Shown: piece after piece, positions 2 to 36,540 of the stretch
Layout: each line of letters begins with the position of its first letter
How positions within the stretch are numbered: the stretch's first letter is position 1
Assembly: GCF_003334815.1 (NCBI RefSeq)
Contig: NZ_QOWO01000004.1
Source of the DNA: Escherichia coli
GTDB taxonomy: Bacteria > Pseudomonadota > Gammaproteobacteria > Enterobacterales > Enterobacteriaceae
DNA: 64,000 nucleotides
Strand: one strand, 5' to 3'
Notes under the pieces: generated by a model
The model's input: only the letters and a program-made list of their open reading frames with translations
What the model was told of the DNA's origin: nothing
Databases searched by the model: none
Made by a program: the position numbers and the translations under genes

Positions 2-2785
2 GTTCCGCGCCTGGCAATGTATGCCCATAAAGAAGATTGCGGCAGTCTGCTGGTACAAATTAACCATCCGCAAGTCATCCGCACCTTGCTACTGGTGGCT
101 GATAAAAACAAACCCAGCCTGCAACGTGTGGCTAAATACAGTAAAAACTTCCCCCACGCGACGCTCGCCGCACTGGCAGAACTGCTGGCGTTAAAAGAAC
201 CACCAGCCCGCCCAGGTTATCCAATCATCGAAGACAAAAAGCTGCCTGCACAGCAAAAAGCACGCGATGAATACTGGCGTACGCTGTTACAAACGCTGAT
301 GGCATCGCAGCCACAACTGGCAGCAGAAGTGATGCCGTGGTTAAGTACTCAAGCCAGGGCAGTGCTGAATAGTTATTTATCGGCACCGCCAAAACCGGTT
401 ATTGATAGCACCGATAACAGCAGTCTGCCTGAAATGCTCGTTTCACCACCGTGGCGTAGTAAGAAAAAAATGACAGCTCCACGTCTTGATTTGGCACCGC
501 TCGAATTAACTCCGCAAATTTACTGGCAACCAGGCGAACAAGAGAGGCTTGCCGCCACTGAGTCTGCCCGTTATTTCAGCACGGAATCTCTTGCGGAACG
601 CATGGAACAAAAAAGTGGACGAGTTGTATTACAGGAACTGGGTTTTGGGGATGATGTATGGCTGTTTCTGAATTATATACTCCCCGGAAAACTGGATGCT
701 GCACGCAATTCACTCATTGTTCAGTGGCATTACTACCAGGGGCGGGTTGAAGAGATCCTGAATGGCTGGAACTCCCCGCAAGCACAATTAGCAGAACAGG
801 CGCTCCGCAGCGGTCACATAGAAGCGTTAATTAACATATGGGAAAATGACAACTTCTCACGTTATCGTCCGGAAAAGAGTGTCTGGAACCTGTATTTATT
901 GGCACAGTTGCCGCGTGAGATGGCTTTGACCTTCTGGCTGCGTATCATTGAGAAAAAGCATCTGTTCGCGGGTGAGGACTATTTTCTCAGTATCCTCGGA
1001 TTGGATGCGCTACCAGGTCTGCTGTTGGCTTTTTCACATCGTCCAAAAGAAACATTTCCGTTAATTTTAAATTTTGGCGCAACAGAACTGGCGCTGCCTG
1101 TTGCCCGCGTCTGGCGACGTTTCGCGGCGCAGCGTGATCTGGCTCGCCAGTGGATTTTACAATGGCCGGAACATACGGCTAGTGCACTTATCCCTCTTGT
1201 CTTTACCAAACCCAGCGATAATAGCGAAGCCGCATTACTTGCCCTGCGTTTACTGTACGAACAGGGACATGGCGAATTGCTACAAACCGTGGCAAACCGC
1301 TGGCAGCGTACAGATGTATGGTCTGCCCTGGAGCAGTTGCTTAAACAGGGTCCAATGGACATTTACCCGGCACGCATTCCAAAAGCCCCTGATTTCTGGC
1401 ATCCGCAAATGTGGTCCAGGCCGCGCCTTATCACTAATAATCAACCTGTTACCGATGACGCTCTGGAAATTATCGGCGAAATGCTGCGCTTTACCCAGGG
1501 GGGACGTTTTTATAGCGGGCTGGAACAACTGAAAACGTTCTGCCAGCCACAAACGCTGGCAGCTTTTGCCTGGGATCTCTTCACTGCGTGGCAACAAGCT
1601 GGTGCCCCCGTAAAAGACAACTGGGCATTTCTGGCGTTAAGTCTCTTTGGTGACGAAAGCACGGCACGGGATCTAACGACACAGATCCTCGGCTGGCCAC
1701 AAGAAGGCAAATCTGCCCGTGCTGTCAGTGGCCTGAACATCCTTACCCTGATGAATAATGATATGGCGCTGATACAGCTGCATCATATATCGCAACGGGC
1801 GAAATCCCGCCCCTTACGTGATAACGCGGCGGAATTTCTTCAGGTGGTCGCAGAAAATCGCGGGCTAAGCCAGGAAGAGCTAGCGGACAGATTAGTCCCA
1901 ACCCTGGGCCTTGATGATCCGCAGGCGTTGAGTTTTGATTTTGGTCCCCGGCAGTTTACCGTTCGCTTCGATGAAAACCTCAACCCGGTTATCTTTGATC
2001 AGCAAAACGTTCGCCAGAAAAGCGTTCCCCGGTTGCGCGCCGATGACGATCAACTGAAAGCGCCCGAGGCACTGGCCCGACTAAAAGGGCTAAAAAAAGA
2101 TGCCACTCAGGTGAGCAAAAACCTGCTCCCGCGTCTTGAAACGGCCCTACGTACCACCCGACGCTGGTCGCTGGCAGATTTTCATTCTCTGTTTGTTAAT
2201 CATCCCTTTACCCGTCTGGTTACCCAGCGATTAATATGGGGGGCTTATCCGGCAAATGAACCGCGTTGTTTACTCAACGCCTTTCGTGTGGCCGCAGAGG
2301 GGGAGTTCTGCAATGCGCAAGATGAGCCAATTGACCTGCCTGCGGACGCTCTGATTGGCATTGCCCACCCGTTAGAAATGACAGTAGAAATGCGCAGTGA
2401 ATTTGCACAGCTTTTTGCCGATTACGAAATTATGCCGCCTTTTCGCCAGTTGGCGCGGTGCACGGTGCTGCTCACACCTGACGAGTCAACCAGTAACAGC
2501 CTGACTCGCTGGGAAGGTAAATCCGCTACCGTTGGGCAGCTTATGGGAATGCGATACAAAGGCTGGGAGTCAGGCTATGAGGATGCATTTGTCTATGACC
2601 TGGGCGAGTACCGGCTGGTCCTTAAGTTTTCACCCGGTTTTAACCACTACAATGTTGATAGCAAAGCGCTAATGAGCTTCCGTTCTCTTCGAGTGTACCG
2701 TGACAATAAATCCGTCACTTTTGCCGAACTTGATGTGTTTGATTTGAGTGAGGCGTTAAGCGCACCTGACGTCATTTTCCATTAA
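2..2785 (+). CDS. yehI: Large DUF4132-type protein YehI, C-terminal ~920 codons; 5' end lies outside the window
   Basis: ORF track 17..2785; frame is open back to position 2, so the gene is truncated by the window edge. Assignment by size and position upstream of yehK-yehL. Confidence 0.75.
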   Translation, partial: VPRLAMYAHKEDCGSLLVQINHPQVIRTLLLVADKNKPSLQRVAKYSKNFPHATLAALAELLALKEPPARPGYPIIEDKKLPAQQKARDEYWRTLLQTLMASQPQLAAEVMPWLSTQARAVLNSYLSAPPKPVIDSTDNSSLPEMLVSPPWRSKKKMTAPRLDLAPLELTPQIYWQPGEQERLAATESARYFSTESLAERMEQKSGRVVLQELGFGDDVWLFLNYILPGKLDAARNSLIVQWHYYQGRVEEILNGWNSPQAQLAEQALRSGHIEALINIWENDNFSRYRPEKSVWNLYLLAQLPREMALTFWLRIIEKKHLFAGEDYFLSILGLDALPGLLLAFSHRPKETFPLILNFGATELALPVARVWRRFAAQRDLARQWILQWPEHTASALIPLVFTKPSDNSEAALLALRLLYEQGHGELLQTVANRWQRTDVWSALEQLLKQGPMDIYPARIPKAPDFWHPQMWSRPRLITNNQPVTDDALEIIGEMLRFTQGGRFYSGLEQLKTFCQPQTLAAFAWDLFTAWQQAGAPVKDNWAFLALSLFGDESTARDLTTQILGWPQEGKSARAVSGLNILTLMNNDMALIQLHHISQRAKSRPLRDNAAEFLQVVAENRGLSQEELADRLVPTLGLDDPQALSFDFGPRQFTVRFDENLNPVIFDQQNVRQKSVPRLRADDDQLKAPEALARLKGLKKDATQVSKNLLPRLETALRTTRRWSLADFHSLFVNHPFTRLVTQRLIWGAYPANEPRCLLNAFRVAAEGEFCNAQDEPIDLPADALIGIAHPLEMTVEMRSEFAQLFADYEIMPPFRQLARCTVLLTPDESTSNSLTRWEGKSATVGQLMGMRYKGWESGYEDAFVYDLGEYRLVLKFSPGFNHYNVDSKALMSFRSLRVYRDNKSVTFAELDVFDLSEALSAPDVIFH

Positions 2786-2845
2786 AACACAGCGGGCAGT
2801 GATGCGACTGCCCGTTATCTACACGACTTACCAGCGGGGAAAGCG

Positions 2846-3163
2846 ATGATCGTGCAAAAAGAGCTAGTTGCTATTTACGATTATGAGGTCCCTGTACCTG
2901 AAGATCCGTTTTCCTTCAGACTTGAGATCCATAAATGCTCTGAATTATTTACAGGTTCCGTCTATCGACTGGAGCGATTCCGGCTACATCCAACATTTCA
3001 TCAACGTGATCGAGAAGATGCTGACCCGCTAATAAATGATGCGTTGATTTATATAAGAGATGAGTGTATTGATGAGCGGAAATTACGAGGTGAATCACCT
3101 GAAACTGTAATAGCAATTTTTAATCGTGAACTACAGAATATATTCAACCAAGAAATAGAATAA
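2846..3163 (+). CDS. yehK: Small acidic protein of unknown function (105 aa)
   Basis: ORF track 2846..3163; ATG preceded by GGGGAAAG; position between yehI and yehL. Confidence 0.7.
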   Translation: MIVQKELVAIYDYEVPVPEDPFSFRLEIHKCSELFTGSVYRLERFRLHPTFHQRDREDADPLINDALIYIRDECIDERKLRGESPETVIAIFNRELQNIFNQEIE

Positions 3164-3229
3164 TATACTCTAGATAATTAAAGTCGCAGCACATGCAACT
3201 TGAAGTATGACGAGTATAGCTTTCTTAAA

Positions 3230-3249
3230 GGGGGAAACGGTATTCCCCC
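3230..3249 (-). terminator. Hairpin downstream of toxin gene 1 (GGGGGAA / TTCCCCC stem); weak U-tract
   Basis: Inverted repeat read directly; on the minus strand only TTT follows the stem. Confidence 0.4.
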
Positions 3250-3272
3250 TTAGATGCGTTTCAATTTGCCCG

Positions 3273-3362
3273 TTACTTCAACAAATCAATCAACCGTAAC
3301 AGAGCCACTAATAACTCCAGTACGGCAATGAGCACGGTTAACTTTTGTGTCAGCGTGTCCAT
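3273..3362 (-). CDS. zorO: Type I toxin, 29-aa hydrophobic peptide MDTLTQKLTVLIAVLELLVALLRLIDLLK (ZorO-like)
   Basis: Minus-strand ATG at 3362 with AAGGAG 5 nt upstream, TAA at 3275..3273; one predicted transmembrane helix with charged ends. Not in the supplied ORF track (too short). Gene name from memory of the zor-orz family. Confidence 0.75.
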   Translation of the reverse strand: MDTLTQKLTVLIAVLELLVALLRLIDLLK

Positions 3363-3543
3363 CCGCTCTCCTTATTAAGGAGCGCAACACCAGCACCTTA
3401 CCCTTACACTGCCTGTTGATACTGGTTTACGTATGTTGGTACGAAACGTTGCTCTCCGGATCAGGGCACCGCCTGCGGCACCACCCGTCCGGCAGCCAGG
3501 ACTTAAAATTGGTCCGATCCGGCACAACCTCCCAACGGGCAGG

Positions 3544-3600: not shown

Positions 3601-3681
3601 GTTGGTACGAAATGTTGCACAATCAGCAAGTTAGCGTCACTGTAGTAAATAAAAGAACCTGCCTCACCAGCAGGTTTTTTT
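3601..3681 (+). ncRNA. orzO: Antitoxin small RNA 1 (OrzO-like), ~80 nt
   Basis: Predicted start ~7 nt after the -10; 5' segment 3601..3620 GTTGGTACGAAATGTTGCAC is complementary to the toxin leader at 3435..3452; ends at an intrinsic terminator. Extent is predicted, not measured. Confidence 0.6.
3656..3681 (+). terminator. Intrinsic terminator of sRNA 1 (AACCTGC-CTCACCA-GCAGGTT followed by a T-run)
   Basis: 7-bp stem, 7-nt loop and a T7 run read directly. Confidence 0.7.
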
Positions 3682-4208: not shown

Positions 4209-4291
4209 GTTGGAACACGATGTTGCACAGGCTGTGGTGTTAGGCCTGAAAATAGTAAATAAAAGAACCTGCCTCACCAGCAGGTTTTTTT
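4209..4291 (+). ncRNA. orzP: Antitoxin small RNA 2 (OrzP-like)
   Basis: 5' segment 4209..4228 GTTGGAACACGATGTTGCAC is complementary to the leader of toxin 2 at 4043..4062; intrinsic terminator at the 3' end. Confidence 0.6.
4266..4291 (+). terminator. Intrinsic terminator of sRNA 2
   Basis: Same AACCTGC...GCAGGTT stem and T-run as unit 1. Confidence 0.7.
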
Positions 4292-17212: not shown

Positions 17213-18362
17213 TACGTTTCACCTTCAGCAGTGCGATAAGCAAATCGAACAGCGCGTCGGTAAGCACCGCCAGAACAATTACCGGGATCACCCCCAGCAA
17301 CACTAAATCAATGGCGCTGCTTAGCAGCCCCTGGAAAACCAGCGCACCAAAACCGCCTGCGCCGATTAACGCCGCAATCACCGCCATACCTACAGTTTGC
17401 ACCATCACCACCCGCAGGCTGCGCAGAAATACCGGTAACGCCAGTGGTAACTGAACATGCAGGAATCGCCGCGCCCCGCTCATGCCCATCGCTCTGGCGC
17501 TCTCCAGCACATCGCGCGGGATCTGGTTCAAGCCGACTACCACGCCGCGCACCAGCGGCAGCAAGGCATAGAGCACCAGCGCAATCAGTGCGGGTGTCAT
17601 TCCGGTTCCTGCTATGCCGAGCTTCCCCAGCCACGGAAAGGCCGTCACCAGCGCGGCAAGCGGCGCAATCAACAGGCCAAAGAGCGCCACCGAAGGCACG
17701 GTCTGAATGACATTGAGCAGAGAAAAAATTGCCCCCTGCCGAGCAGTGGAAAAGTAGCACCAGATGCCCAACGGCACACCAATCACTAACGCAGGCAGCA
17801 CCGCACCAAACAGCAACGTCAGATGTTGTGCCAGCGCGTCGTCAAACACATCCTGACGGTTGGCGTATTCTTTCATTAGTGAGAGATCGTTAAGCGTGCC
17901 GGAGTACAGCAACCACAGCGGAATAATGGCAATCTGCATATGCAACAACCAGCGCCACAGCGGATGCGTGGAGATTCGGCGGATGGCATCGCTACAGGCC
18001 AGCAATGCCAGCGCCGCAGCCAGCCAGAAACCACTGCCGAGGCTGGTACGCGCCAGCGCACTGCCATTTTGCGCCAGTTGGGTCGCCGCCTTTCCAGCTC
18101 CCCACACCAGCAATACGAAGACGAATTGCGCCAGAATGAGTGCACAAATGCTGCCTTTTTTACCGGGAATAAAACAGGCCGTCAGCCAGGCGCAACCAAC
18201 GCCCACCAGCATCCAGATCGTTTGCGGCCACAGCTGCCAGAGATGACGCCCCTCACCCGAAACTAAACGATTAGGCGCGTAACTGATAAACGGCAGCGCC
18301 GCTGCGATTGCCGTCAGCAACAGCAGCAGCGCCAGAACAGGATTAATACGGAAATAAGTCAC
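17205..18362 (-). CDS. yehY: ABC transporter permease
   Basis: ORF track; apparent GTG start; overlaps the yehX start by 8 nt. Confidence 0.85.
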
Positions 18363-24716: not shown

Positions 24717-24889
24717 GATGAGCATTCAGATAGTGGTTCACGCGCACGGGTTGCGCACCGCCGGAGTAAGGATTTACTGAGGCTAGCGACGCCATCATAA
24801 CGAGCAAAAAGTGCGATCGTCAAAGGAGAATCGTGAGGAAATGCTGCATTGCTGACATTTACGCCAGCAATGCAACGTCAAAGAACTTT

Positions 24890-27168: not shown

Positions 27169-28605
27169 TCAGCGTTTGTAACCCCCGCCCAACGCACCAG
27201 TGAGTTGAATGGAGGCATCCAGCCACTGCCCTTGCAATAACAGGCCATTGGCCCGCTCACGCAGCGCGGGGATTCTGGCTTCGCTGACGCGGGAACCAGC
27301 AATGATGCCCGCGTTAAAGCGCGCCTGCGCAAGACCTACCACACGCAAGGCATCGCGCTCAATTTGCGCCTGATGCTGGTTTTTCTCCGCCAGTGTCTGA
27401 ACCTGACTGGCTGCCCGCGCCACGTCATTCACCGCTTCAACCACCGCTTTGTTGTAGCTGGCGATAGACAAGTTGCTTTCGGCTTTTGCGATATCGAGAT
27501 TGGCGTTAAGACGACCACTATCGAAAATGGGTAGCGTCAGGCCTGCCGTAACGCCCATTTGCTGCGCGGAATGACGGAACAGATCGCTTAAGTGCAACGC
27601 ATCCTGTTGCAGGAAGGCCATCAGGTTGATGTCAGGATAAAATGCCGCTTTTGCCGCATCAATGGTGCTTAGCGATGACTCAACGTACCAGTGCGCCGCC
27701 TGCAAATCTGCCCGCCGGGCCAGTAAGGAGTACCCCAGTTCATCAGGAAGCTGGCTTGCCACTTTCGGCAACGCGACCGGTTTAAGCTTCAATGACTTTG
27801 TCTGGTTATTTGTAAGTGCGCTTAACCGTGCCTCAATAATTTTCATTTTCCCCGCGACATCGTTGAGCTGCTGCCGGGTTTTGCTGGCATTAATATCGGT
27901 TTCCACACCTTCAACTGAAGAAGTAATCCCGTTCTGATATAGCTGGCGATCGGTCGCGATAATGGTGTTCTGCTCTTTTTCTATTTGCTGCAAGACCGTG
28001 TTTAACGCCGCCTGGGTTTGCCACTCCCAGTACAGGCGGGCTACGCTGCCAGCCAGCAATTGGCGGGTTTGCTCGCGTTCCGCCGCCCGTGCTTTAACCG
28101 TACCCAGGCGGGCAGTAACCTCCGCCCGATTCTTTCCCCAGATATCGAGATGCCAGCCCGCCGTTAAGCCAAAAGTACCGTTGGTGTACCACGGGCCGGT
28201 CGTACCTGCGGCCGGATCGTTCAGAGCAAACGGCCCCATTAAGCCTTCTGCCGACATTTTTTGCCGCTCCATATCCGCCGAAAAGTCGATCTGCGGACCA
28301 TCCTGAGTGGCAACTGCCTTCGCCTGGGCTTCAGCTAGCTGAATGCGCTGTTCAGCCACCTGCATATCCGGTGCGTTCTGTAGTGCATTGTTAATTAAGG
28401 AAGTGAGTTGATTATCGTGATACTCCAGCCACCATTGGCTGTCTGGCCAACCATTTTTCAGCGCCGTGGGTAATGCGGTGTCAACTTGTGCAGCGGGCGT
28501 TTGCTGGCTTAACGCCTGGCGGGTTTCATGCATAGGCGCACACCCGGCCAGCATCAGTAACAGCGGAAAACAGGCGATGGCTGGATAAAAGGAATCACGA
28601 TTCAT
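27169..28605 (-). CDS. mdtQ: Outer-membrane efflux factor lipoprotein, intact frame of 478 aa
   Basis: ORF track 27169..28695 trimmed to the Met at 28605; lipoprotein signal with LAGC. Uninterrupted here, whereas I recall the K-12 copy being a pseudogene. Confidence 0.75.
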   Translation of the reverse strand: MNRDSFYPAIACFPLLLMLAGCAPMHETRQALSQQTPAAQVDTALPTALKNGWPDSQWWLEYHDNQLTSLINNALQNAPDMQVAEQRIQLAEAQAKAVATQDGPQIDFSADMERQKMSAEGLMGPFALNDPAAGTTGPWYTNGTFGLTAGWHLDIWGKNRAEVTARLGTVKARAAEREQTRQLLAGSVARLYWEWQTQAALNTVLQQIEKEQNTIIATDRQLYQNGITSSVEGVETDINASKTRQQLNDVAGKMKIIEARLSALTNNQTKSLKLKPVALPKVASQLPDELGYSLLARRADLQAAHWYVESSLSTIDAAKAAFYPDINLMAFLQQDALHLSDLFRHSAQQMGVTAGLTLPIFDSGRLNANLDIAKAESNLSIASYNKAVVEAVNDVARAASQVQTLAEKNQHQAQIERDALRVVGLAQARFNAGIIAGSRVSEARIPALRERANGLLLQGQWLDASIQLTGALGGGYKR

Positions 28606-28828: not shown

Positions 28829-28912
28829 ATGAAAATTATACTCTGGGCTGTATTGATTATTTTCCTGATTGGGCTACTGGTGGTGACTGGCGTATTTAAG
28901 ATGATATTTTAA
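28829..28912 (+). CDS. yohP: 27-aa small membrane protein MKIILWAVLIIFLIGLLVVTGVFKMIF
   Basis: ATG 28829 with AAAGGAA upstream; not in the ORF track. Confidence 0.65.
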   Translation: MKIILWAVLIIFLIGLLVVTGVFKMIF

Positions 28913-29017
28913 AATTAATTAATGTCATCAGGTCCGAAAATAACGAGAATATTTCAGTCTCTCATCCTGTTGCGCTCCTGTCATGTGCATTGCTTCATAT
29001 AATCACTGGCGCAAGGA

Positions 29018-29240
29018 GCGCGCAGGGGGCGGCCAATCGCCGCCGCCCCCTGCACCCCCGGGCTCTGGCGAACAAAATCGCCGCTGCGCGGTGCCCTCGA
29101 CTTATCCCTTACGGCTACCGGGTCGGGCGCGAGGTAACATCCCTGTAAAACGCGCCCTCAGCCCACATCCATGTGGGCTGCCCCGGCCTTCAGGGAACGC
29201 CTCGGCAATTTTGACGCCACCAAACAACCGTGCGGCCTAT
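29018..29240. other. GC-rich structured intergenic element with two perfect hairpins
   Basis: Hairpins at 29022..29053 (12-bp stem) and 29159..29180 (10-bp stem, 2-nt loop) in a visibly GC-rich block; identity unknown. Confidence 0.3.
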
Positions 29241-29284
29241 TGATAAAGAGCTAACACATTGTCAAAAAACATCACTATGGTTTT

Positions 29285-30232
29285 TTAGAGTTTCTCGATA
29301 TCAATTGCCTGAATAGCCCTTGCAATATCAGGGGAATTATTCAACACCCGAACATGCTGAAATAATTCCGTTGCTTCATCGTATTCTTTACGCAAATAAC
29401 TCAACCACTGTTTAATCCGCGCAACGTGATATAACCCGGTATCGCCCTGCTTTTCCAGACGGGTATATTTTTGCAGCAAAGCAACCACCTCCGGCCACGG
29501 CATTCGCGGTTCGTTATATTTTACCACCCGGCTCAGGTTGGGAATATTGAGCGCCCCGCGACCAATCATCACTGCGTCGCAGCCGCTGATCGCCATGCAT
29601 TGTTGCGCGCTCTGCCAGTCCCAGATTTCACCGTTGGCAATCACCGGAATATTCAGCCGCTGGCGAATATCGCCAATCGCCTGCCAGTCAATATGCTCCG
29701 CGCGGTAACCCTGCTCTTTCGTCCGCCCATGCACCACCAGCTCCGTAGCGCCAGCCTGTTGAACCGCATCGGCGATTTCAAATTTCTTCTCACCGCTGTC
29801 CCAGCCCAGACGCACTTTCACGCTGACGGGCAAATGCGCCGGTACAGCTTCACGCATCGCTTTTGCACCCTGGTAGATGAGTTCAGGATCTTTGAGTAAC
29901 GTCGCCCCGCCGCCGCTACCGTTAACCGTTTTCGACGGGCAGCCGCAATTGAGATCCACGCCCCAGGAACCTAACTCCACCGCACGGGCGGCGTTCTCTG
30001 CCAGCCATTGTGGGAACTGACCTAACAACTGCACGCGCACCAGCGTACCAGATGGTGTCCGGCTGGCGTTTTGTAGCTCAGGGCAAATGCGATGAAAGAC
30101 TTTTACCGGCAGCAGTTGATCCACCACGCGGACAAACTCGGTGATGCACAGATCGTAGTCGTTAACTTCGGTCAGCAATTCACGCACCAGAGAGTCAAGC
30201 ACTCCCTCCATCGGTGCCAGTAACACACGCAT
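29285..30232 (-). CDS. dusC: tRNA-dihydrouridine synthase C (315 aa)
   Basis: ORF track trimmed to the Met at 30232 ([11 protein letters not shown]). Confidence 0.9.
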
Positions 30233-36354: not shown

Positions 36355-36540
36355 GACGCATCCGGCATTTGGTTCCTGTCGCCGGATGCGGCTTGAACGC
36401 CTTATCCGGCCTACAAAACCATACAAATCAGTATGTTGAGCTTATTGTAGGCCGGATAAAACGCGCCAGCGTTGCATCCGGCATTTGGCTCCTGTTGCCG
36501 GATGCGGCGTGAACGCCTTATCCGGCCTACAAAACCACAC
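36355..36540. repeat. BIME: cluster of REP elements in alternating orientation
   Basis: Three GCCGGATGCGGC...TTATCCGGCCTACAAA-type units between preA and mglC. Confidence 0.85.

Follow-up and report, generated by a model that had tools for sequence, protein, structure and literature searches.

The GC-rich block between yohP and dusC of Escherichia coli is the known repeat TRIP1c (RRS-dusC) and has a fold conserved across enterobacterial genera

TRIP1c was named by Rudd (1999), and the TRIP1 repeats of E. coli are treated in Li et al. (2024, PMC10888264). In the latter article, TRIP1a follows the aqpZ terminator. TRIP1b, located 41 bp past putP, carries a 125-bp internal deletion, and TRIP1c is found between yohG/yohP and dusC, 43-44 bp past the stop codon of yohI (dusC), in the orientation opposite to that of TRIP1a. 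Further TRIP1 loci given there are alx-sstT and copA-ybaP. The same article lists 3448 genomes with forward and 1255 with reverse TRIP1a, as well as 2952 with forward and 2789 with reverse TRIP1c, and states that rearrangements between TRIP1 copies occur. Pham et al. (2023, PMC10287960; 2024, PMC11194060) later gave the two full K-12 copies the names RRS-lysO and RRS-dusC, where RRS stands for Replication Risk Sequence, and describe them as 222-bp GC-rich near-perfect inverted repeats, one on either side of dif at a distance of ~650 kb.

A role in replication is described in the same two papers (Pham et al. 2023, PMC10287960; 2024, PMC11194060). The strand with the G-quadruplex (G4) motif is the lagging-strand template at both K-12 loci, and Pol I, II and IV halt at the G4 site on M13 single-stranded templates. 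By ssGap-seq, RecA and SSB were found on ~2 kb of lagging-strand ssDNA beside each RRS, and also beside an RRS placed elsewhere in the same orientation. Inverted RRS copies gave no gap peak, yet the other copy could then be deleted, i.e. they complement. Both RRS were deletable only together with a 200-kb amplification or in the presence of extra or inverted copies. At least one copy is reported to be conditionally essential, and double deletion or double inversion alters the supercoiling map obtained by Psora-seq.

The window analysed here is a 64-kb stretch of E. coli DNA, in which a GC-rich block is flanked by yohP (28829-28912, plus strand) and dusC (minus strand, stop at 29285). An earlier note, made by a model from the letters alone, had singled out positions 29018-29240 as a structured GC-rich element and had suggested that it might be a small RNA, be left over from a mobile or repetitive element, or serve to bind a protein. 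The compositional contrast was borne out: over 29000-29249, GC content in 100-nt windows is 0.73, 0.64, 0.63 and 0.60, compared to 0.33-0.41 on either side. Both perfect hairpins named there exist as described, one with 12-bp arms (29022-29033/29042-29053) and one with 10-bp arms (29159-29168/29171-29180), and TATAAT is indeed found at 28998-29003. The left edge of the block had been drawn too narrowly, similarity to the other full K-12 copy covering 28962-29233; weak family similarity extends to ~28948-29258. Folded as RNA, the block is far more stable than dinucleotide shuffles (z = -4.45 for the minus and -5.35 for the plus strand; 0/100 shuffles as good). Folded as DNA, the 223-nt core reached z = -5.76 (G4 strand) and -6.16 (other strand), again with no shuffle as good (0/200), and ssDNA energies were -70.1 kcal/mol for the G4 strand and -65.4 kcal/mol for the opposite strand.

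The block is TRIP1c, renamed RRS-dusC, and thus an already known element of low novelty. The whole repeat copy occupies 28962-29240 on the minus strand (the G-rich "sense" or G4 strand), where it aligns with the MG1655 aqpZ-lysO copy; its published length is 273 bp. The RRS-dusC core, i.e. the ~222-bp near-perfect inverted repeat of RRS-lysO, corresponds to 29004-29226 on the same strand, with coordinates mapped in this analysis and not taken from the papers. The published G-quadruplex-forming 20-mer GGGGGTGCAGGGGGCGGCGG has a single exact match in the 64-kb window (29040-29059, minus strand), with 0 expected in shuffles. Family similarity ends at ~29233-29240, ~44 bp from the dusC stop, as published for TRIP1c, and the repertoire of K-12 is that of RRS/TRIP1: a full partner at lysO on the opposite strand and a partial third copy after putP. 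Of the explanations offered before, the repetitive element was the right one, the block being a copy of the TRIP1/RRS family. The earlier note had held a match to a known repeat family against its own proposal, and such a match is what was found. The published function as a replication obstacle on single-stranded DNA was not among the options considered at that stage.

Two other described repeats were tried as well. BoxC did not fit because it is a triplex motif of 56 bp with ~33 copies, and RSA (150 bp and 6 copies) was dropped once TRIP1 had been found. A full-text literature search for the hairpin strings returned unrelated primers only. In NC_000913.3, we saw no annotation at the element copies in the yohP-dusC, aqpZ-lysO and putP-efeU intervals.

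Comparison with other E. coli genomes by BLASTN, which had been suggested for telling a strain-variable from a repeated block, revealed a repeat: a megablast search with 29000-29245 matched all 5426 of 5426 complete E. coli genomes at 17,786 places in total (median 3, range 1-8 per genome; up to 10 by blastn). The part lacking the first hairpin is repeated too, and no second copy is present within the 64-kb window. The aqpZ-lysO and putP-efeU sites first came to light in two chromosome fragments filed as plasmids. Comparison of the interval with K-12, likewise suggested before, revealed another full copy in the aqpZ-lysO interval and an internally deleted one after putP. In MG1655, the full aqpZ-lysO copy lies on the opposite genomic strand and is 94.5% identical over 272 nt to 28962-29233; a single base differs over ~29004-29220, with divergence beyond. 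The two full MG1655 copies are located at ~915.1 kb and ~2229.2 kb. Strain TUM11352, unlike MG1655, has a deletion in its aqpZ-lysO copy. The MG1655 putP-efeU copy matches in two pieces only (28969-29073 and 29177-29233), and its junction joins ...CCCCCTGC to TGTCCCGGCC... at a pair of direct repeats, D2 (29056-29073 and 29181-29198, plus strand), which form the end points of the internal deletion in short copies.

The arrangement of the element at a given site varies. The K-12-type yohP-dusC interval was found in 3316 of the 5426 complete genomes (~61%), the alternative allele accounting for ~39%. Among sampled alternative alleles, strains SF-468 and S21 carry the element reversed between yohP and dusC. 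Between aqpZ and lysO, it is reversed in O157:H7 RV06 and in strain E7, and as the dusC copy of O157:H7 strain 7409 is reversed too, O157:H7 carries both copies reversed. A simple local inversion as the origin of the two yohP-dusC alleles was rejected, since the flanks outside the repeat align in neither orientation. We found no empty site at yohP-dusC, only two filled alleles in 40 sampled records. At ybaP-copA, there is the repeat or else ybaQ, alone or together with a toxin gene, and no clean empty site was seen there. The three K-12 copies, the deletion variant and the ybaP-copA locus were found independently here and agree with the published accounts.

Two readings of the plus strand were considered. 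The 86-aa open reading frame (28983-29243, plus strand), taken for an artefact already in the earlier note, is one: the copies differ by 1-nt indels and internal deletions, and because of these indels we rejected a coding function. The other is an independent small-RNA gene on this strand starting from the TATAAT at 28998-29003. Such a gene would make use of a consensus -10 hexamer, which the window copy does have, and of a strand that folds well (z = -5.35). However, promoter and terminator scans inside the block gave no promoter-like and no terminator-like site, and the hexamer itself lacks an acceptable -35 partner. Nor is it kept across copies, being CATATT in the lysO copy, TATAAA elsewhere and GTTATG in Klebsiella, and in the window copy it sits in the loop of helix H0 (see below). 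The plus strand has no Rfam match above noise and is devoid of annotation in NC_000913.3, which makes this reading extremely unlikely. The more general proposal of a structured small RNA is not supported: no Rfam family reaches its threshold in the covariance search, no promoter or terminator emerged from the scans, and NC_000913.3 carries no annotation.

To assess the fold, we built a 57-sequence alignment of the minus strand (A2) and folded it by RNAalifold. The consensus comprises 70 pairs in 13 helices; its energy is -93.0 kcal/mol, of which covariation contributes -5.0. In A2, 98.9% of the cells at paired positions can pair, versus 94.3% in shuffles (reached by 0/500) and 37-47% in slid controls. 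Pairs changed on both sides number 28, versus 13.8 in shuffles (again 0/500) and 3-6 in slid controls, although the independent events are fewer than these counts suggest, because the sequences fall into three main subfamilies. Several pairs vary within the Klebsiella subfamily also. This analysis showed that the fold is under selection across genera. The minus (G4) strand gives the better consensus fold, with an energy of -79.9 kcal/mol versus -69.9 kcal/mol for the plus strand, and in those helices that are predicted on both strands, 20 of the stray non-Watson-Crick cells are wobble-compatible on the minus versus 8 on the plus strand. Together with the ssDNA folds, these results favour a folded single strand as the active form, and the G-rich one as the strand that matters.

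Compensatory changes are spread over the whole structure. Hairpin H1, with its perfect 12-bp arms GCAGGGGGCGGC and GCCGCCCCCTGC (29022-29033/29042-29053), overlaps the G4 runs and is helix 12 of A2; in 7 of its 12 pairs, both partners have changed, as in GGGGGAGGA/TCCTCCCCC of SF-468. Helix H0 (helix 13) is an inverted repeat formed by GCGCTCCT (28972-28979) and AGGAGCGC (29014-29021), which encloses the TATAAT within 28972-29021. Three of its pairs are compensated, as seen from GCGCTCC/GGAGCGC in Escherichia and CGTTCAC/GTGAACG in Citrobacter. A long-range closing helix (arms 29073-29088 and 29198-29213; helices 2-4 of A2) encloses the branched core and occurs as AAAATCG/CGATTTT, AACATCG/CGATGTT or AAAATTG/CAATTTT. 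Helices 2-7, with compensatory changes, together enclose hairpin 8 and hairpin 9-10. Helix 11 is the small hairpin CCGC-TGC-GCGG (29081-29091), in which compensation is seen at 3 of 4 pairs (CCAC/GTGG in 22 sequences, TTGC/GCAA in Citrobacter).

The two enclosed hairpins expose GGA loops on the minus strand. Hairpin A (29125-29157; helices 9-10) has an outer stem GGGCGCG/CGCGCCC and an inner loop ACAGGGAUGU. Hairpin B (29159-29168/29171-29180; helix 8) combines perfect 10-bp arms with an AUGGAU loop, and its stem reads CCCAC/GTGGG in Escherichia, CCCGC/GCGGG in Klebsiella and CCAGC/GCTGG in Citrobacter. Both loops contain C-A-N-GGA-Y-G in 57 of 57 copies, ~28 nt apart, and in hairpin A the N alone varies or is deleted. 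AUGGAU is found in hairpin B of every copy, yet the search pattern demanded AUGGAU for the metagenome loci (at least 120), so the invariance of this loop is partly an effect of the pattern.

Outside E. coli, we found real copies in E. albertii, Pseudocitrobacter faecalis, K. pneumoniae, K. aerogenes and Citrobacter freundii, at unrelated intergenic sites. A metagenome scan with the 21-base core pattern gave at least 120 loci. A scan of a genome collection with ATTTTGACGCCACCAA is little informative on taxonomic range, because only about 6 of the 120 matches listed are real copies, most others being chance. In K. pneumoniae, the element is present at 13 places in one chromosome-sized record, at unrelated loci and often beside REP units. 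In a Klebsiella-type contig, the element and paired REP-like units alternate and are repeated three times in tandem, every 653-654 bp. The gene context of 80 copies was surveyed crudely from ORFs: the neighbouring genes are convergent for 39 copies, tandem for 22 and 15 (the two orientations) and divergent for 4, so that a gene 3' end adjoins 76 of the 80. At eight distinct insertion contexts, the element ends are AT-rich and fuzzy.

A distribution of this kind would also be expected from a chiefly selfish or neutral dispersed repeat, MITE- or REP-like, that spreads or is copied from one intergenic site to another, is tolerated in 3' intergenic regions and has its replication effects as a mere by-product of the stable fold. 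Copy number varies from 1-8 (megablast) or up to 10 (blastn) per E. coli genome to 13 in a single K. pneumoniae chromosome. Different genera have the element at different loci (pcaC-mscS, proY-ybhB, torD-yeiP, sitD), and every genus is represented by a separate subfamily in which the stems are compensated in a distinct way. Both orientations occur at one locus with unrelated flanks, internal-deletion variants have arisen between short direct repeats, copies form a tandem array with REP units, and 76/80 copies adjoin a gene 3' end, with 4 between divergent genes. The repeats are, moreover, reported to mediate chromosomal rearrangements. Against this speaks the want of MITE hallmarks, as the ends of the eight insertion contexts show neither terminal inverted repeats nor a consistent target-site duplication. 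No autonomous parent or linked transposase was seen in plasmid or chromosome matches, the phage collection gave no match and IMG/VR only 2 contigs. None of the complete E. coli genomes lacks the element, a neutral remnant would not retain 13 helices and the loop sequences to this degree, and the reported conditional essentiality argues for a host function. We therefore consider this explanation very unlikely. A phage or plasmid origin was rejected separately: there was no phage match, and 34 of 34 "plasmid" records are non-mobilizable, several of them chromosome-sized.

The invariant GGA loops bring up another possibility, namely that the element works as RNA. The minus strand would be transcribed (in K-12 by read-through from dusC), and the two GGA hairpins would bind one CsrA dimer, the element then being a divergent enterobacterial relative of TwoAYGGAY that acts as a CsrA-dependent 3'-UTR stabiliser or small sponge. 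TwoAYGGAY (RF01731) is in fact the sole notable Rfam match, covering minus-strand positions 29076-29213 with 29.7 bits (E = 0.021) and centred on hairpin B; in two further E. coli alleles, the scores are 30.9 and 26.4 bits. In the cmscan alignment, a closing stem, a junction stem and two hairpins are shared. TwoAYGGAY has been proposed as a CsrA binder, and its seed members in Psychromonas are multi-copy and located beside other repeats. The spacing of the two C-A-N-GGA-Y-G loops, conserved in all 57 copies, is within reach of one CsrA dimer, and the K-12 hairpin A, UUACAGGGAUGU, fits 11 of 12 positions of the CsrA SELEX consensus RUACARGGAUGU. Covariation in multiple helices and the wobble bias to the minus strand fit RNA as well as ssDNA. 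Finally, the half-life of dusC mRNA drops from 3.25 to 1.74 min in a csrA mutant, a change flagged as not significant.

On the other side, all TwoAYGGAY scores (26.4-30.9 bits) stay under the Rfam gathering score of 43, and copies from Klebsiella and Citrobacter do not match TwoAYGGAY at E <= 1. dusC is marked "No" for a CsrA CLIP-seq peak and in three other CsrA target lists (Potts et al. 2017), and no CsrA peak coordinates fall inside the interval among the supplement rows listed. The scans found neither promoter nor terminator, orientation in tandem-gene contexts shows no strong preference (22 vs 15), and the GGA strand of the MG1655 lysO copy is antisense to both aqpZ and lysO. The published phenotypes were reproduced on M13 single-stranded DNA and depend on the direction of replication. 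Taken together, a function as CsrA-binding RNA appears decidedly improbable.

We consider it highly likely that the block is the dusC copy of an enterobacterial TRIP1/RRS repeat that acts mainly as DNA, being a replication obstacle via its folded G-rich strand. Upon unwinding at the fork, the G-rich strand (minus in the window), which is the lagging-strand template in K-12, is expected to fold into a very stable structure. In the published model, the block is ascribed to the G-quadruplex at 29040-29059: the lagging-strand polymerase would stop there and restart downstream, leaving a transient gap of up to ~2 kb that would be occupied by SSB and RecA. In the authors' proposal, such gaps would serve as topological relief valves for both borders of the Ter macrodomain. 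In the window, the flank GC skew on the G4 strand is +0.037. From the comparative data, we infer that the selected feature would be the whole 13-helix fold of the G-rich strand and not the G-runs alone.

Several observations are difficult to reconcile with the G-quadruplex and gap part of this model. The G4 itself is weak, a canonical quadruplex with four G3+ runs being present in 1 of 57 copies. The G-runs constitute half of H1, and their C-rich partner covaries with them, which is not predicted by a pure G4 model. Orientation is about evenly split in nature, with the alternative allele at ~39% and both O157:H7 copies reversed. Over 86 loci, flank GC skew reveals no orientation bias (38/86, p = 0.33), the proxy being noisy and the loci non-independent. 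Since inverted copies complement without gaps, gap formation may not be what makes the element essential. Thirteen copies in a single K. pneumoniae chromosome are as compatible with a spreading repeat as with a positioned device.

This raises the question if the essential activity resides in the 13-helix fold together with the two invariant CsrA-type GGA hairpins, as a divergent member of the TwoAYGGAY class that is read as RNA or ssDNA by a specific protein, rather than in G-quadruplex and gaps. We regard this as unlikely; if true, it could explain the complementing inverted copies as well as doubly reversed natural strains such as O157:H7. Returning to the replication obstacle, the comparative data sharpen the question which feature of the 222-bp element is functional. 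The element picked from sequence alone turned out to be one member of the RRS pair on the flanks of the Ter macrodomain. Since RRS elements are reportedly conditionally essential and shape supercoiling throughout the genome, flagging this block was biologically sound, though not new. Compared with the accessible parts of the published accounts, the covariation of helices across genera, the invariant GGA loops, the 13 Klebsiella copies and the double reversal in O157:H7 are modest additions.

Among known systems, the G-quadruplex upstream of pilE in Neisseria gonorrhoeae is the only other bacterial G4 that the RRS authors name as triggering gap formation. It is a single short motif tied to antigenic variation, in contrast to the RRS without a 270-bp conserved fold and not a dispersed repeat. 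REP/BIME elements (including the BIME-2 gyrase sites and the REP325-derived naRNA4) are likewise GC-rich, palindromic and intergenic, follow genes and have a proposed role in topology. However, REP are single hairpins of ~35-40 nt in hundreds of copies, whereas the element studied here, with ~270 bp and 13 helices, is present in 1-13 copies. A naRNA4 match is located 7 kb away within the window, and Klebsiella copies directly adjoin REP units.

With TwoAYGGAY (RF01731; Weinberg et al. 2010), the element shares a branched fold with a long closing stem and two GGA-loop hairpins, and both are multi-copy, intergenic and, in at least one genome, located beside other repeats. They differ in hairpin A, which is ANGGAY here (AGGGAU in K-12, A-N-GGA-C elsewhere) instead of the AYGGAY of TwoAYGGAY, the first Y not being kept, and in the two additional 3' hairpins (H1 and H0) and the G-runs of the element. 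The CsrB/CsrC/Rsm-type RNAs also present GGA in hairpin loops at a spacing suited to one CsrA dimer, but they contain 5-22 such sites versus two in the element, which is without an own promoter or terminator and without a CLIP-seq signal at dusC. With RRS/TRIP1, finally, the locus, the exact G4 20-mer, the inverted lysO partner and the partial putP copy are the same, GC content is likewise 62-65%, and the orientation dimorphism and five loci found independently here agree with the published survey; in identity, there is no difference between the block and RRS/TRIP1.

A copy of RRS/TRIP1, the dispersed GC-rich repeat whose dusC copy lies in the window, occupies the ybaP-copA interval (RRS/TRIP1e) in 348 of 5426 E. 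coli genomes, and one is seen at positions 7120-7420 of L148. The alternative content of this interval is ybaQ, which encodes an antitoxin of the HigA family and is accompanied in some cases by a RelE/ParE toxin gene; an empty ybaP-copA interval was not seen among the sampled E. coli records.

Three copies lack the left part of the element, which gives way at a sharp junction to unrelated DNA (L135, from an IMG/VR viral contig, 751-1051; L145, 137-437; L159, 7818-8118), and these junctions look as if something had been inserted into the element. Two short contigs combine flanks of different TRIP1 loci, with ybaP-copA on the left and yohP-dusC on the right in L069, and aqpZ-lysO on the left and yohP-dusC on the right in L156. 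Such mixed flanks arose either by chimeric assembly across the repeat or by repeat-mediated rearrangement; rearrangements between TRIP1 copies are reported by Li et al. 2024 (PMC10888264). On a Klebsiella-type metagenome contig (L138), a tandem array at 1540-3450 has a period of 653-654 bp and contains three RRS copies, with two REP-like units of 153 nt after each of them.

The stretches of the window that were queried are 100% identical to K-12 strain J53 and 99.6-99.9% identical to MG1655-type records. The latter annotate mdtQ as a pseudogene with a frameshift (1436 nt), whereas in the window it is a single uninterrupted ORF (27169-28605, minus strand).

Rfam yielded above-threshold matches elsewhere in the window. 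Two of them belong to the OrzO-P antitoxin RNA family (3608-3681, 88.8 bits, and 4216-4291, 99.9 bits, both on the plus strand), which points to two type I toxin-antitoxin loci in tandem, some 25 kb upstream of RRS-dusC. A Peptidase-S11 RNA motif was matched at 24721-24801 (minus strand, 72.8 bits). The naRNA4 (CssrE) match at 36450-36527 (minus strand, 88.3 bits), naRNA4 being a nucleoid-associated RNA derived from REP elements, represents a further repeat-derived structured element, 7 kb from RRS-dusC.

As to CsrA, Supplementary Data 2 of Potts et al. 2017 gives a dusC mRNA half-life of 1.74 min in the csrA mutant versus 3.25 min in the wild type, a difference flagged there as not significant; the dusC row comes early in this table, whose rows are apparently sorted by fold change.

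TwoAYGGAY, the RNA motif with a sub-threshold match on the RRS minus strand, has at least five members of its seed alignment (Weinberg et al. 2010) in the genome of Psychromonas ingrahamii alone (NC_008709.1), and a different short repeat, GUAACACGCCGUCAGGGCGGAAGACCAAC, borders them. In this organism the motif thus behaves as a dispersed repeat, like RRS/TRIP1.
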